Source: Escherichia coli | Lineage (GTDB): Bacteria; Pseudomonadota; Gammaproteobacteria; Enterobacterales; Enterobacteriaceae | Direction: 5' to 3' (one strand) | NCBI RefSeq assembly: GCF_003334315.1 | Contig: NZ_QOWR01000023.1 | Length of the DNA stretch: 64,000 bases | Shown here: positions 5,265-61,585 of the stretch, piece after piece | Layout of the letters: each line of letters opens with the position of its first letter | Position numbering within the stretch: position 1 is the stretch's first letter | Made by a program: the position numbers and the translations under genes | The notes under the pieces: generated by a model | Told to the model about the DNA's origin: nothing | Seen by the model: only the letters and a program-made list of their open reading frames with translations | Database searches by the model: none

Positions 5265-5307
5265 CCGATGAAGCGGCGGTAGAAGTGCCGCCGCAACAAA
5301 GACAAAT

Positions 5308-10672: not shown

Positions 10673-13850
<3,178 letters not shown>

Positions 13851-18797: not shown

Positions 18798-19995
18798 AAC
18801 GGGTCACGATCTCGTCGAGTAATAATTGGCCAAGGAGCTCTTTGCGCTCAAGCGGTAAGACTTTATCTCCGTCCTGCCAGAAAAGGTGTAATGCGTTGTT
18901 GTCGCTGTTAAATCCTTGAGTTGGCTGGGAAACATCGTTCGCGCAGATCAGATCAAGGTTTTTACGGATACGTTTTTGCCGGGCGTATTCTTCCACATTA
19001 TTTGTTTCGGCGGCAAATCCAACGACGTAGGGTCGATGGTCTTTTAGTGCGGCAACGCCTGCGACGATATCGGGGTTTTTAACCATTTTTATTGTTAATT
19101 CATCACCCTGCGTGGCCTGCTTTTTGATTTTTTCTGGGGCCACGGTAGCTGCGCGATAATCCGCCACGGCGGCGCAACCGATAAAAATATTTTGCTGCTG
19201 TACAGAAGCATTCACGGCGGCTTCCATTTCCAGCGCGGTCATCACATCAACACGTTTAACAAACGGTGGCGTCGGTAGTGAAACCGGACCTGATACCAGC
19301 GTGACGTTCGCGCCACGACGGGCAGCGGCGGCGGCGATAGCAAAACCCATCTTGCCGGAGCTGTGATTAGAGATATAACGCACCGGATCGAGCGGTTCAC
19401 GCGTCGGGCCGGTGGTAATCATAATGTTCAGATGTTTCAGGTCGTTGACGGGCGAAAAATGCGCTACCGCCATATCCACAATGGTTAATGGATCGAGCAT
19501 TCGCCCTGGGCCGATATCACCACAAGCCTGACTGCCACTGTCTGGCCCCCAGATCAGCAAACCACGGGAAGCAAGCACCTCTAAATTATGCTGCGTGGCA
19601 GCGGCACGGTACATCTGCTGGTTCATGGCGGGGAGCACGGCTACAGGCGCAGGTGTAGCCAGACAAATCGTCGATACCAGGTCATTCGCCATTCCGGCAG
19701 CAACACGGGCAATCAAATCTGCCGTGGCAGGGGCGAGAATCACTAAATCAGCCCATTTACCCAGCTCAATATGGCCCATAGCGGCTTCGGCTGCCGGGTC
19801 CAGCAGACTGTCGGAAACGGGATAACCAGAAACCGCCTGCAAGCTAAGTGGGGTGATAAAGGCTTTTGCCGCTTCGGTCATGGCTACGCGGACGTCGGCC
19901 CCGCGATCGCGCAAACGACGCACCAGTTCAGGGGTTTTATAGGCAGCAATACCGCCGCTAACGCCGAGAACGATTTTTTTACCGGCCAGGCTCAT
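18775..19995 (-). CDS. coaBC: bifunctional phosphopantothenoylcysteine decarboxylase / synthetase
   Basis: ORF track 18775..20067; start trimmed to [20 protein letters not shown] (406 aa); cat seen at 19993-19995; 3' end overlaps the dut start. Confidence 0.93.
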
Positions 19996-22421: not shown

Positions 22422-24186
<1,765 letters not shown>

Positions 24187-24537
24187 AGTAAATAGCTGAC
24201 TTATGGATGTGCTGGGGATTCTATGTATTTAGCTGTGGCTTTACCATTACTTTTCCCGTTTTTGACTTAAATAGCAATTTACCCGCCAATTCTTGCTGAA
24301 CATCTATACTTTTTTTGTATTTTTATGCGATTCATTGATTTCTGCTGTACGTGCAGGAAGGAATCGCAGAGCAACAGTGAAAGAATATGGTTGCTAATGA
24401 TTTTATTTGATTGATTTCTTTATTGAAAATCAACAATGTGCTTAAAAATCATTCGGGTCGGATTGCCGCGAAAGAAGTGATACACTAGCGCGTCAATATC
24501 AGTGCGGTATCAGTATTCAGGTAGCTGTTGAGCCTGG

Positions 24538-24549
24538 GGCGGTAGCGTG
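24538..24549 (+). promoter_or_regulatory. ops / JUMPStart element (RfaH recruitment site) in the waaQ leader
   Basis: GGCGGTAGCGTG at 24538-24549, about 50-95 bp upstream of the candidate waaQ starts. Confidence 0.8.
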
Positions 24550-24598
24550 CTTTTTCTGCTTCACCTTAATCGGATAATCTCAACAAAAAGAGTTACTT

Positions 24599-25657
24599 GT
24601 GGATAAGCCATTTCGAAGAATTTTGCTCATTAAGATGCGTTTTCATGGGGATATGTTATTAACTACTCCCGTCATTAGTTCGCTGAAAAAAAATTACCCT
24701 GACGCAAAAATCGATGTGCTGCTTTATCAGGACACCATCCCGATCCTGTCTGAAAATCCAGAGATTAACGCGCTCTACGGCATAAAAAATAAAAAAGCAA
24801 AAGCCTCAGAAAAAATTGCCAACTTTTTTCATCTCATCAAGGTATTACGTGCCAATAAGTATGACCTTATCGTCAATCTCACCGATCAATGGATGGTTGC
24901 TATACTGGTTCGCTTATTAAATGCCCGTGTGAAAATTTCCCAGGATTATCATCATCGGCAGTCTGCTTTTTGGCGTAAAAGTTTCACCCATTTGGTGCCG
25001 TTGCAGGGTGGAAATGTGGTGGAAAGTAACTTATCCGTGCTGACCCCATTGGGAGTTGATTCGTTGGTGAAGCAGACAACCATGAGTTACCCGCCTGCAA
25101 GCTGGAAACGTATGCGTCGCGAACTTGATCACGCTGGTGTTGGACAAAATTATGTGGTTATCCAACCTACGGCGCGGCAAATCTTCAAATGCTGGGACAA
25201 CGCCAAGTTTTCCGCTGTGATTGATGCCTTACATGCTCGTGGTTATGAAGTTGTTCTGACGTCCGGCCCAGATAAAGACGATCTGGCCTGCGTCAATGAA
25301 ATTGCGCAGGGATGCCAGACGCCACCAGTAACGGCGCTGGCTGGAAAGGTGACCTTCCCGGAACTTGGTGCGTTAATCGATCATGCGCAGCTGTTTATTG
25401 GCGTTGATTCCGCACCGGCGCATATTGCCGCTGCAGTTAATACGCCGCTGATATCGCTGTTTGGTGCGACAGACCATATTTTCTGGCGTCCCTGGTCAAA
25501 TAACATGATTCAATTCTGGGCGGGAGATTACCGGGAAATGCCAACGCGCGATCAGCGTGACCGAAATGAGATGTATCTTTCGGTTATTCCGGCGGCAGAT
25601 GTCATTGCTGCTGTCGATAAATTACTGCCCTCCTCCACGACAGGTACGTCGTTATGA
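24599..25657 (+). CDS. waaQ: LPS heptosyltransferase III
   Basis: GT9-family ORF; start ambiguous between GTG 24599, TTG 24623 and ATG 24635 (MRFHGDMLLTTPVISSLKK...). Confidence 0.9.
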   Translation: MDKPFRRILLIKMRFHGDMLLTTPVISSLKKNYPDAKIDVLLYQDTIPILSENPEINALYGIKNKKAKASEKIANFFHLIKVLRANKYDLIVNLTDQWMVAILVRLLNARVKISQDYHHRQSAFWRKSFTHLVPLQGGNVVESNLSVLTPLGVDSLVKQTTMSYPPASWKRMRRELDHAGVGQNYVVIQPTARQIFKCWDNAKFSAVIDALHARGYEVVLTSGPDKDDLACVNEIAQGCQTPPVTALAGKVTFPELGALIDHAQLFIGVDSAPAHIAAAVNTPLISLFGATDHIFWRPWSNNMIQFWAGDYREMPTRDQRDRNEMYLSVIPAADVIAAVDKLLPSSTTGTSL

Positions 25658-26778
25658 TCGTTGCTTTTTGTTTATATAAATATTTTCCCTTTGGCGGTTT
25701 GCAGCGTGATTTTATGCGTATTGCTCAGACAGTCGCCGCCCGAGGTCATCATGTTCGGGTTTATACCCAGTCGTGGGAAGGCGAATGCCCTGATGTATTT
25801 GAACTGATCAAAGTGCCGGTTAAATCGCATACCAATCACGGGCGCAATGCGGAGTATTTTGCCTGGGTGCAAAAACATTTACGCGAACATCCCGTCGATA
25901 AAGTCGTTGGATTCAACAAAATGCCGGGGCTGGACGTTTATTATGCCGCTGATGTTTGTTATGCCGAGAAAGTAGCGCAGGAAAAAGGCTTTTTCTATCG
26001 CCTGACGTCACGTTATCGCCATTATGCCGCCTTTGAGCGGGCAACCTTCGAACAGGGCAAGCCGACACAGCTGCTGATGCTGACAGATAAGCAAATCGCC
26101 GATTTCCAGAAACATTATCAGACTGAAGCGGAGCGTTTTCATATTCTGCCACCGGGGATTTATCCTGATCGTAAATATAGCCAGCAGCCAGCCAATAGCC
26201 GTGAAATCTTCCGTAAGAAGAATGGAATAACCGAACAACAATATTTATTGTTGCAGGTCGGTTCAGACTTCACGCGTAAAGGTGTCGATCGTTCCATTGA
26301 AGCACTTGCTTCGTTACCGGATTCGCTGCGCCACAACACATTGCTATATGTTGTTGGGCAGGATAAACCGCGAAAATTTGAGGCACTGGCAGAAAAACGC
26401 GGCGTGCGCAGTAATGTTCACTTCTTCTCGGGGCGCAACGATGTCTCGGAATTAATGGCGGCGGCGGATTTATTACTGCATCCTGCCTACCAGGAAGCGG
26501 CGGGAATTGTGCTGCTGGAAGCGATTACTGCAGGATTACCGGTACTAACAACTGCCGTTTGTGGCTATGCGCATTATATTGTCGACGCTAATTGCGGCGA
26601 GGCTATTGCTGAGCCATTCCGCCAGGAAACATTGAATGAGATTTTACGCAAAGCGTTAACGCAATCTTCATTGCGCCAGGCTTGGGCGGAAAATGCGCGA
26701 CATTATGCTGATACACAAGATTTACACAGTCTGCCAGAGAAAGCGGCGGATATCATAACGGGTGGTCTGGATGGTTGA
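25654..26778 (+). CDS. waaG: LPS core glucosyltransferase I (GT4)
   Basis: 374-aa [28 protein letters not shown]; start overlaps the waaQ stop. Confidence 0.95.
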
Positions 26779-27568
26779 ACTTAAAGAGCCGTTTGCCACG
26801 TTATGGCGCGGCAAAGATCCTTTTGAGGAAGTTAAAACCTTGCAGGGTGAGGTATTTCGTGAACTGGAAACTCGCCGTACTCTGCGCTTTGAAATGGCGG
26901 GCAAAAGCTATTTTCTCAAATGGCATCGCGGCACGACCCTGAAAGAGGTAATCAAAAATTTACTCTCATTGCGGATGCCAGTATTAGGCGCTGACCGCGA
27001 ATGGAATGCGATTCATCGACTGCGGGATGTCGGCGTTGATACTATGTATGGGGTGGCATTCGGCGAAAAAGGCATGAATCCGCTGACCAGAACCTCGTTT
27101 ATTATTACCGAAGATCTGACACCAACCATAAGTCTGGAAGATTACTGTGCTGACTGGGCGACCAACCCACCAGATGTTCGCGTAAAGCGTATGCTTATTA
27201 AGCGTGTCGCGACGATGGTGCGCGATATGCATGCTGCGGGCATTAATCACCGTGACTGTTATATCTGTCATTTCCTGCTGCACTTGCCTTTTTCCGGTAA
27301 GGAAGAGGAGTTAAAAATTTCGGTAATTGACCTGCACCGGGCGCAGCTTCGCACGCGCGTTCCACGTCGTTGGCGCGATAAAGATCTTATTGGACTTTAT
27401 TTTTCTTCGATGAATATTGGCCTGACTCAGCGGGATATCTGGCGGTTTATGAAGGTGTATTTTGCCGCTCCGCTTAAAGACATTCTCAAGCAGGAACAAG
27501 GACTGCTGTTGCAAGCAGAAGCAAAAGCCACAAAAATCAGGGAAAGAACGATTCGAAAATCGTTGTAA
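26771..27568 (+). CDS. waaP: LPS core heptose(I) kinase
   Basis: ORF track 26762..27568; start trimmed to [21 protein letters not shown] (265 aa). Confidence 0.93.
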
Positions 27569-52641: not shown

Positions 52642-52690
52642 AGCGCCTTATCTTGCCGGATGCGGCGTGAACACCTTACTCGGCCTATAG
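52642..52690. repeat. REP-like palindromic element
   Basis: gcgccttatcttgccggatgcggcgtgaacaccttactcggcctatag is REP-like (GCCGGATGCGGCG...). Confidence 0.5.
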
Positions 52691-52724
52691 GAATGTGCAG
52701 AATCACCCTGTAGATACTGTGTTC

Positions 52725-59509: not shown

Positions 59510-59968
59510 GGGGGAGGGGGGAGATTATGGAACTTTGCTCCTTGTAAGGACTAATTATTTTTGCATATTACTTCATTAGCTGCGATGATTTTTCTTTAAT
59601 ATTCATTATGTTAATAAGTTCTGGATGAGTGTGCTCTCATTGGATTTTTTATCCGTCTTGTTCTGCCGCAGGATGAGACTATACATCGTCGAGATCGCAA
59701 TGATGATATGAGTTGTTCCTCCTGCGACGGCTCTAATCAAAAAAGAGCAGGAGTGCTTTTCCATCTATTGCGATGATGGCTTTATTATCTGAAGGATGAC
59801 AGTCACATTTAAAAAATATTTAATCTATAGATCACAATGTAGGGTCATGGAATATATGTATACAACTATTTTCTTCTTCACTTTTAATTATCGTATTCAT
59901 TATAAAACTAAGTTAAAAAAACTCCTGGAGAGTGAGTTATTAATATATTTTTAAATAAAATTAAGTTA

Positions 59969-60406
59969 TCATTCATCGATGCACTTTATAGAATCATCAA
60001 TGGCCATAATAGTACTATTAACTCTCAATTTTATATTTTTATCATCACTACAAATATTAACTGAATTTATATCAATGATTTTTTTATTCTTATCTTTTAT
60101 TTTATTTACTGTTTCAATGCAATCAGCGGCAAGTTGGAGTGGATTTAGATTTTTCAGATATGGTCTTATGATCTTTCCCTTACTTAATAAATAGCATGTA
60201 TAGGATTCGGAAAGTCCAGCATCTATTTTGTACCTCATTATATTAGATAAGGATGTGAGAAATTCCTTGTTATCATTCGCAGCCATATATGCCAGTCCGA
60301 GTTCAGCCTCTGCGGCCTTACAGGCAAAATAGCTTAGTGAACACGCTTTTCGTCCCTCTTTAGTACTGGCTGATATTAGTGCCCATAATATTGCTTTGTC
60401 TGCCAA
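59969..60406 (-). CDS. hypothetical protein (145 aa), candidate Rhs-associated immunity protein
   Basis: AT-rich ORF with no family I recognise; lies in the Rhs orphan-module region. Confidence 0.4.
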   Translation of the reverse strand: MADKAILWALISASTKEGRKACSLSYFACKAAEAELGLAYMAANDNKEFLTSLSNIMRYKIDAGLSESYTCYLLSKGKIIRPYLKNLNPLQLAADCIETVNKIKDKNKKIIDINSVNICSDDKNIKLRVNSTIMAIDDSIKCIDE

Positions 60407-60494
60407 ATCTAACTCTCTCTGAAATTGTCTTGCAGTAACTGCACTCGCAGAAATAGAGAAAAAAATACAATTGTTAATAACCTTGCCATATTTT

Positions 60495-60788
60495 TTAGTC
60501 CGTAACTGTTAATGTGCTATCTGGCTCTGAAAATATTAACTCATTTAATTTTTGCATGTCATTAGATAAACCAGTTATACAACCCTCGGAACAGAATCGA
60601 GGTCCTAAAGACGGACCAAAAGCGTTTAAACAACTATGTATTGAAAATCCATTGCGATTATAAGTTCCTGTATTAACTGACGGTACTAATCGTATGCCGT
60701 CAGGTTTTCTATTGCTTGCTCCCGGGTCATTAACATTCCAACTCCATAGGCCTTGAGGTATTGGCCATCTATTTATAAATGTGTACAA
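60495..60788 (-). CDS. hypothetical protein (97 aa), possible toxin-tip fragment
   Basis: ORF with apparent TTG start, immediately downstream of a degenerate Rhs core-end remnant. Confidence 0.3.
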   Translation of the reverse strand: MYTFINRWPIPQGLWSWNVNDPGASNRKPDGIRLVPSVNTGTYNRNGFSIHSCLNAFGPSLGPRFCSEGCITGLSNDMQKLNELIFSEPDSTLTVTD

Positions 60789-60861
60789 CGGGGATTATTT
60801 TTACATTGCATATTATTACCAGAAGCGACTGGAATACTAAGCACATCATAAAAATTATCAT

Positions 60862-61100
60862 CACATGGTATATCTGAAACACACGAAAGCATACCTAAAG
60901 TTATGCTGTATAAACAGGTGGCTAATCCCAAGGGGATCGATTCCAGAAATCGGGTTCAACGGATACTGATAAAAATTCCACCTACCTTCCAGCCCAATCG
61001 GAGCCTGAGTGTTATACCGCCCCTGCTGCGGTTAATGTTACCGATAATAGTTATAGTACAGCCCTGATTCATCATCATACTACTGCTGCGGCAGTCTGAT
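60862..61100 (-). pseudogene. degenerate third copy of the Rhs core 3'-end segment
   Basis: Nucleotide similarity to the core-end segments at 62100-62260 and 63855-64000 (ggttcaacggatactgataaaaattcca...agcccaatcgg...ataccgcccctgc); hand translation gives ...[24 protein letters not shown]...DPLG with in-frame stops on both sides. Confidence 0.4.
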
Positions 61101-61112
61101 GAACTATTGCTT

Positions 61113-61574
61113 TTACGGATTCTCCTTATTCTTCCTTCTATCCATTCGCTTTAGCTTTTTGAGCTCTTGAAGTTTGCTCTTTGCATCAATATTACCGTTA
61201 TTTACAGCGAATTTCATCCAATAAATAGCTCTATTCAAATTATAATATTCTGATAATGTTGGATTTGTATCTGATAAAAAGACCCCATAATTAAACTGCG
61301 CTGTAACATTCCCCTGAGATGCTGATCTTTCCAAGAATCGCAATTGTTTATCAATATTATTTTTAGTAAAGCAGTAATATTGATATAGTCGAAATGATGC
61401 CTCTGAATCACCATGTTGTGATTTATACTTCAGTTTCATCAGCTTTTCTTCACTTAAATCATAGGTCATTGCTGTAGATCCCATCACACTTTCGTTTTCT
61501 TTTATTTTCACATCAGCACCATGCAATTGACCAATAAGAGAAAAATAAAAAAATAGTAACAAGCATGCTTTCAT
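61113..61574 (-). CDS. yibG: Sel1/TPR-like repeat protein with signal peptide; probable immunity protein for the adjacent orphan Rhs toxin tip
   Basis: 153-aa ORF MKACLLLFFYFSLIGQLHG...; immediately downstream of the orphan rhs fragment. Confidence 0.7.
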   Translation of the reverse strand: MKACLLLFFYFSLIGQLHGADVKIKENESVMGSTAMTYDLSEEKLMKLKYKSQHGDSEASFRLYQYYCFTKNNIDKQLRFLERSASQGNVTAQFNYGVFLSDTNPTLSEYYNLNRAIYWMKFAVNNGNIDAKSKLQELKKLKRMDRRKNKENP

Positions 61575-61585
61575 ACATCTACAAC

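Follow-up and report, generated by a model that had tools for sequence, protein, structure and literature searches.

Which signal in front of waaQ allows the long LPS core operon to be transcribed to its end, and is the ops-like sequence found there that signal or a coincidence of base composition? We addressed this question in a 64-kb stretch of Escherichia coli DNA (hereafter the window), in which the ATG of waaA at 24186 (minus strand) and the GTG of waaQ at 24599 enclose a divergent spacer of 412 bp (24187-24598). An earlier note on this DNA had described the spacer as AT-rich with several A/T tracts and had placed in it a long waaQ leader with an RfaH-dependent ops/JUMPstart element. The description of the spacer proved accurate: the gap is exactly 412 bp, its GC content is 38.3% compared with 49.4% for the window, and six runs of A or T, each 5 to 7 nt long, occur in it. 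With a GC content at the 14th percentile of the window's 412-bp windows, the spacer's AT-richness is true yet unremarkable and ordinary for an E. coli promoter region. The site within it is almost certainly the cis-acting RfaH loading site of the waaQ LPS-core operon, the well-known ops/JUMPstart signal of that operon that has already been described in the literature.

The ops motif

A motif search of the 64-kb window located the exact ops 12-mer GGCGGTAGCGTG at 24538-24549 on the plus strand, and a search that tolerated one mismatch returned this site as the sole match. Only ~0.007 exact copies would be expected from base composition on both strands of the window. The site conforms to the 12-nt ops consensus GGCGGTAGnnTG and has the TG at positions 11 and 12 that induces the pause; PMC5995543 is the source for the consensus, for what each base does and for where the pause falls. 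As a signal for RfaH recruitment and pausing, ops is read on the non-template strand, and here it lies on the waaQ strand, inside the leader as delimited by the start site transferred from K-12, with 49 nt between its end and the GTG.

The conserved 8-bp core GGCGGTAG, whose absence the earlier note would have taken as refutation, is present on re-inspection. Six copies occur in the window against ~1.9 expected, so the 8-mer alone is unconvincing. Only the copy at 24538 carries the ...nnTG extension and the JUMPstart context. The other five GGCGGTAG 8-mers, at 5275, 13638 and 55071 on the plus strand and at 19471 and 50827 on the minus strand, have neither, and we regard them as irrelevant, a reading that matches the intragenic ops-like sites of CFT073 at which RfaH does not bind.

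The complete JUMPstart element

Since the 8-nt core is weak evidence by itself, the match to a covariance model of the whole element was the decisive test. Rfam family RF01707 (JUMPstart) matched 24511-24549 on the plus strand over model positions 1-38 of 38, with 55.2 bits and E=6.4e-10 for the whole window, 20 bits above the gathering score of 35. It was the sole Rfam family to reach its threshold in the 64-kb window, and the spacer alone gave the same match; beyond JUMPstart, a permissive Rfam search of the spacer yielded only a meaningless match to a plant microRNA (E=0.49). The matched element is 39 nt long, and GGCGGTAGCGTG forms its 3' end. The placement of GGCGGTAGCGTG at 24538-24549 in the earlier note is thus borne out, both by the exact match and by the full-length JUMPstart match around it.

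Directly upstream of ops the Rfam structure line places a stem-loop at 24518-24536, in which CAGGT (24518-24522) pairs with GCCTG (24532-24536) across a 9-nt loop. This 5-bp stem is kept by compensatory change among the 115 distinct elements listed from other genomes. The second stem pair was left unconstrained by the DNA pattern used to find those elements and therefore provides an unbiased test of covariation: it is paired in 107 of the 115 (T-A 83, A-T 13, G-T 7, G-C 3, C-G 1), where 71.8 would be expected if the bases were independent. The G-T and T-G wobbles are compatible with the sense strand only, which indicates that the stem forms in RNA or in non-template DNA.

These results bear on the simplest alternative, namely that the 12-mer is a functionless chance match. 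Its core is indeed common in the window, and in CFT073 34 of 42 ops-like sites are intragenic and are not bound by RfaH (PMC9765446). The full 12-mer, however, is far too rare for this, the JUMPstart model matches with E=6e-10, and the site lies in a leader on the non-template strand and is invariant across diverged alleles and across genera. On the rarity of the 12-mer, the Rfam score and the conservation across genera we rejected chance as an explanation, and we regard it as exceedingly improbable. On every feature that can be tested in sequence, the element is a member of the JUMPstart/ops family. The earlier attribution to RfaH is likewise supported, given a complete JUMPstart at the head of the waaQ LPS-core operon and the fact that the same site is so named in PMC6358824 and PMC8745692.

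Relatives of the element

A collection of species-representative genomes was scanned with a DNA pattern that combined the stem-loop arm and ops. The matches listed amount to at least 120 loci, almost all in Enterobacterales, and in at least ~30 of the loci listed a waaQ homologue follows 40 to 70 nt after the element; wherever a waaQ locus had enough sequence, a divergent waaA lay ~400 nt upstream of the element. Among the matches listed, the waaQ-linked genera are Escherichia (coli, albertii and whittamii), Enterobacter, Citrobacter, Kosakonia, Shimwellia, Pluralibacter and Cedecea, together with Silvania, Pectobacterium, Brenneria, Symbiopectobacterium and Serratia, so that the waaQ-linked element occurs in at least 10 enterobacterial genera besides Escherichia. 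The non-waaQ copies that were sampled precede a wza-type export gene, rmlB, galF/galU, wbaP, wecA or a nucleotide-sugar dehydrogenase gene; leaders of polysaccharide operons are the context for which JUMPstart was named.

A few matches fell outside this pattern. Two GC-rich ones (L031, Polyangia; L100, Pseudonocardiales) were without the rest of the element, look like chance matches and were set aside. Perfect JUMPstart elements of the enterobacterial type also turned up on contigs of 1.4 to 14 kb labelled Arthrobacter, Erysipelotrichia or Tenericutes (L038, L050, L051, L067, L094, L105), for which contamination or mis-binning is the likely cause.

The closest relative is the K-12 waaQ leader with its JUMPstart/ops and RirA (b4760). 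It shares with our site the locus, the orientation, the first gene, the extended -10 and the context of the start site, and the comparison with known ops leaders that the earlier note had suggested gave 39 of 39 identical positions over JUMPstart/ops. The K-12 spacer differs in being an allele ~80% identical overall and only 36-51% identical in its central segments, and the K-12 gene set differs from the R3-type operon with the waaQGPIYJD order that lies downstream here. The RF01707 elements of the rfb, colanic acid/capsule (wza) and ECA (wecA) operons have the same 39-nt architecture. Their common layout is a 5' CAG-type box, a 5-bp stem-loop with a GGTAGC arm and then GGGCGGTAGCGTG, placed on the sense strand of a leader 30 to 600 nt before the first ORF. 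The waaQ version departs from it in two details: the second stem pair of the waaQ type is A-T (or G-T, G-C), whereas most other JUMPstart elements have T-A, and CAGTAT occupies the Rfam-aligned position of its box, the canonical CAGTGC being found 10 nt upstream of there (24500-24505).

The hly, F tra and kps leaders share mainly the ops part and are not known to carry a full JUMPstart. Their ops sites have the same 12-nt consensus and the same RfaH-dependent mechanism (PMC5995543, PMC9765446), whereas the waaQ leader has the complete JUMPstart. A more distant comparison is with the lambda-type systems nut/N, put and Q, in which a leader signal likewise makes polymerase resistant to termination over a long operon; this is an analogy, not a family relationship. 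N reads an RNA hairpin and Q a promoter-proximal DNA site. The reader of ops is a NusG paralogue, which recognises non-template DNA (PMC5995543).

Probable transcription start, promoter and waaQ leader

The curated MG1655 annotation has a 73-nt ncRNA, rirA (b4760), at 3808166-3808238 in the homologous spacer. RirA and the waaQ mRNA have a common 5' end and transcription start (PMC5736990, PMC8745692), and RirA carries the ops and JUMPstart sites according to its authors' reviews (PMC5736990, PMC8745692). The K-12 rirA/waaQ 5' end aligns to T24493 of the window, and the window allele differs from K-12 at four of the first 18 transcribed bases. By this alignment waaQ transcription would start at about 24493, which gives a leader of ~106 nt (24493-24598) and not one of 412 nt, and the first base of ops is at +46, that is, 45 nt past the transferred start. 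The "long waaQ leader" of the earlier note therefore holds in that ops does lie in the leader; its 412 bp are those of the divergent promoter spacer, and a 412-nt leader was rejected.

A putative extended -10 element, TGaTACACT at 24478-24486 on the plus strand, ends 7 nt before this start, and we infer that it belongs to the waaQ promoter. The form TGnTACACT/TGGTACAAT is kept in the waaQ leaders of Escherichia, Citrobacter, Kosakonia, Shimwellia, Pluralibacter, Cedecea and Silvania. The promoter has no good -35, which is why a scan of the spacer with the sigma-70 consensus left the extended -10 uncalled. That scan produced two weak sites instead, at 24429-24400 on the minus strand and at 24423-24452 on the plus strand (TTGAAA-18-AATCAT). 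Both were rejected, since their number does not exceed that in shuffled sequence and neither fits the mapped start. At the place expected of a -35 there is a block, CATTCGGGTCGGATTG (24450-24465), that is unlike TTGACA and is kept across several Enterobacteriaceae genera; it could be a binding site for an activator of the waaQ promoter.

At the other end of the leader, a weak Shine-Dalgarno-like AAAGAG (24587-24592, plus strand) can be read 6 nt before the GTG, and AAAGAG-N6-GTG is kept across genera in waaQ leaders. RfaH-dependent operons have been described as lacking a canonical ribosome-binding site (PMC6358824), and the weak AAAGAG fits the report that their translation depends on RfaH. 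With regard to the start codon itself, the waaQ frame opens at GTG 24599 (352 aa), and alignments with homologues from many genera begin at residue 1. In the K-12 reference, waaQ is given an internal ATG 24 nt downstream as its start (24623; 344 aa), which would remove the conserved N-terminal RILLIK strand.

The operon downstream of the element

Just downstream of JUMPstart lies the LPS core cluster waaQGPIYJD. Its first gene is waaQ/rfaQ, encoding heptosyltransferase III (24599-25657, plus strand), which matches NF007742 with 713.3 bits; the 352-position profile covers residues 1-351 and PGAP agrees with the GTG start. It is followed on the same strand by waaG, a GT4 glucosyltransferase (25654-26778), waaP (26771-27568), waaI/O, a 3-alpha-galactosyltransferase (27611-28618), and waaY (28644-29351), and then by a GT8 waaJ-like gene (29376-30389) and a GlcNAc transferase (30398-31540), assigned from NCBIfam, the O157:H7 annotation and the ORF list. 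The seven genes span ~7.05 kb from the start site. We take the waaQGPIYJD gene order to be that of the R3 LPS core type.

On the other side, the leftward genes are waaA, a Kdo transferase gene (22909-24186, minus strand; NF004385, 905.7 bits over its full length; waaA in O157:H7), and coaD. Past the last gene of the operon, a terminator scan found a terminator-like hairpin at 31543-31569 with a 12-bp stem and a flanking A-run and T-run, after which comes the convergent waaL-waaC-waaF-hldD operon. The hairpin lies in the 35-bp gap between the waaQ operon and waaL and looks like a bidirectional terminator. The gene order of the waa cluster is that of the annotated E. coli O157:H7 cluster, at 99.3% identity. 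The rfaH gene itself is not within the 64-kb window.

RfaH loading and the reported role of RirA

The account of pausing, RfaH loading and anti-termination that would apply at this locus is taken from the literature, and the start site from K-12 homology. Transcription would start at ~24493 from the extended -10 promoter, and 45 nt on RNA polymerase would transcribe JUMPstart/ops and pause at ops U11 (~24548). Since ops is a consensus pause signal with its pause at U11 (PMC5995543), the pause is expected at position 24548 here. In the paused complex the exposed non-template GGCGGTAG would form a small hairpin to be read by RfaH; such a hairpin, with T6 flipped out, has been described for ops (PMC5995543). 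RfaH would then open, take the place of NusG on the polymerase and stay bound across the operon, where it would suppress pausing, Rho-dependent termination and blocks imposed by H-NS. Its refolded C-terminal domain would recruit the ribosome to waaQ with its weak Shine-Dalgarno, as RfaH is reported to do for genes with poor ribosome-binding sites (PMC6358824). The expected result is full expression of seven genes over ~7 kb.

Published work on this operon agrees with the scheme. The presence of ops and JUMPstart in the waaQ 5' UTR, the RfaH dependence and RirA have all been described (PMC6358824, PMC5736990, PMC8745692). In CFT073, ChIP signal for RfaH covers the rfa operon downstream of a single leader ops (PMC9765446), and the same operon is coated by H-NS/StpA, with counter-silencing of H-NS (PMC9765446). 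Dependence of distal genes on RfaH and the presence of RfaH on polymerase have been reported for the rfa/waaQ operons of K-12 and CFT073 (PMC6358824, PMC9765446).

The site accounts for full-length transcription of the 7-kb LPS core operon, on which the integrity of the outer membrane, serum resistance and phage receptors depend. An ops/JUMPstart before waaQ is textbook RfaH material, and the value of the present analysis lies in correct annotation, which marks the start of the operon, the transcription start at ~24493 and the RirA equivalent. It also shows that a signal of this kind can be recognised in the letters without database searches, as in the earlier note.

The RirA equivalent, of which the earlier note made no mention, occupies the first 72 nt of the waaQ mRNA (24493-24564, plus strand). 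By alignment to MG1655 it lies in the same place as the 73-nt K-12 RNA b4760 and is ~92% identical to it, with five substitutions and one T fewer. What is said here about RirA rests on its authors' reviews and on the MG1655 annotation. A discrete short RirA RNA that accumulates and binds RfaH is reported in the reviews (PMC5736990, PMC6358824), and abundant RirA is reported to damp activation by RfaH.

This raises the possibility that the element acts mainly in trans, the leader being chiefly a RirA gene whose product titrates RfaH, with anti-termination in cis secondary. K-12 annotates rirA at this place, the equivalent here is well conserved, and overexpressed RirA mimics an rfaH deletion and shows ops-dependent binding of RfaH with RNA polymerase (PMC6358824, PMC5736990). 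Several points argue against this reading: RfaH accompanies polymerase through rfa (PMC9765446), many further operons without a described sRNA are headed by this JUMPstart/ops, and the RirA phenotypes are those of overexpression. Moreover, the cis and trans roles are not exclusive. We consider a mainly trans-acting element unlikely, and retain RfaH loading in cis as the primary function.

A possible attenuator in the leader

A further reading concerns the leader RNA. In the predicted fold of the RirA equivalent, positions 24501-24551 pair into a long imperfect hairpin with ops as its 3' arm, and U5 follows. The corresponding T5 run (24551-24555, plus strand) comes directly after the ops-containing hairpin and may be an attenuator or RirA 3'-end signal. 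The leader could then hold an RfaH-sensitive attenuator, in which ops RNA pairs with a conserved box upstream at 24501-24514 around the JUMPstart stem-loop and the U-run follows; polymerase without RfaH would stop and release RirA, and RfaH-modified polymerase would read through. We offer this only tentatively and think it will probably not hold. The extended form, in which the ops part of the leader doubles as an RfaH-sensitive intrinsic attenuator and the released RirA titrates RfaH in a feedback loop, is rather improbable. If true, it would be a self-contained RfaH/RirA loop within ~70 nt, and it may already have been proposed.

Alignment of 16 Enterobacteriaceae waaQ leaders gives this fold some backing. 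Standard pairs make up 93.8% of pair cells, and sliding the 3' partners lowers this to 29-55%. Pairing survives the changes seen in the 5' arm (UG to CG, GU to AU, and one two-sided GC to AU), and none of the four allele differences among the first 18 nt touches a paired position. Thermodynamics, on the other hand, does not distinguish it: the RirA equivalent does not fold more stably than shuffled sequence (z=-0.66), and the fold of a 138-nt leader gave no thermodynamic signal (z=+1.49). The 3' arm is invariant as ops, so that almost all variation is one-sided; the shuffle control was borderline (26-36 of 500); and one of the aligned sequences had itself supplied the structure.

A T-run is found in 12 of the 16 aligned leaders; it is interrupted in E. 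albertii (TTTGTT) and absent from Kosakonia and two Citrobacter, and Pectobacterium/Brenneria leaders also lack the U-run. A terminator scan of the spacer made no call, and the annotated RirA 3' end lies 9 nt beyond the U-run, further than intrinsic terminators usually release.

Spacer alleles and neighbouring regions

Of 5426 complete E. coli genomes, 5425 have the spacer, 4410 of them with the allele of the window at >=99% identity and ~935 with a K-12-like allele (~79-80%). In a three-allele alignment, the spacer, including the divergent promoter part outside the mapped waaQ leader (24187-24492), shows mosaic conservation. Identity between E. coli alleles is ~90-100% in the 89 waaA-proximal bp (24187-24275), in 30 bp at 24309-24338 and across 24442-24549, and only 36-51% at 24276-24308 and 24339-24441. 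JUMPstart/ops is 97-100% identical between alleles, with 39 of 39 positions shared with K-12 and 38 of 39 with the third allele. The diverged segments may mark a recombination junction between a conserved waaA side and a core-type-specific waaQ side, or alternatively may be allele-specific regulatory DNA. A repeat search of the spacer found only low-complexity A/T-rich pairs with no evident meaning.

In some E. coli the spacer carries IS insertions, namely IS1 in JMF1 and an ISVsa5/IS10-like element in E2 (L004:196-1404). The E2 insertion has spared both the conserved promoter block and JUMPstart, the end of its transposase gene lying ~100 nt upstream of that block.

Compared with the annotation of O157:H7 PV15-279, in which it is frameshifted, the GT8 gene at 29376-30389 is intact here (337 aa, TTG start). 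Also absent from the window are the ISEc8 insertion in yicG (13769-13775) and, at 52672-52724, a segment of ~6 kb that carries ehaG, an adhesin gene, and a DUF3251 gene; elsewhere identity is 98-99%. The absence of ISEc8 and of the ehaG segment points to an E. coli lineage other than PV15-279 with the same gene set in the waaQ operon.

Finally, the end of the window (59600-64000) is strongly AT-rich, with GC content down to 24.5% at 59800-60199. The match of an ORF at 61586-62530 (minus strand) to the RHS core profile is confined to the final ~150 residues of that profile, a PRK09687 "putative lyase" lies at 62572-63429 (minus strand), and several small ORFs in the stretch have no family match; the region looks like an Rhs tail or orphan region.
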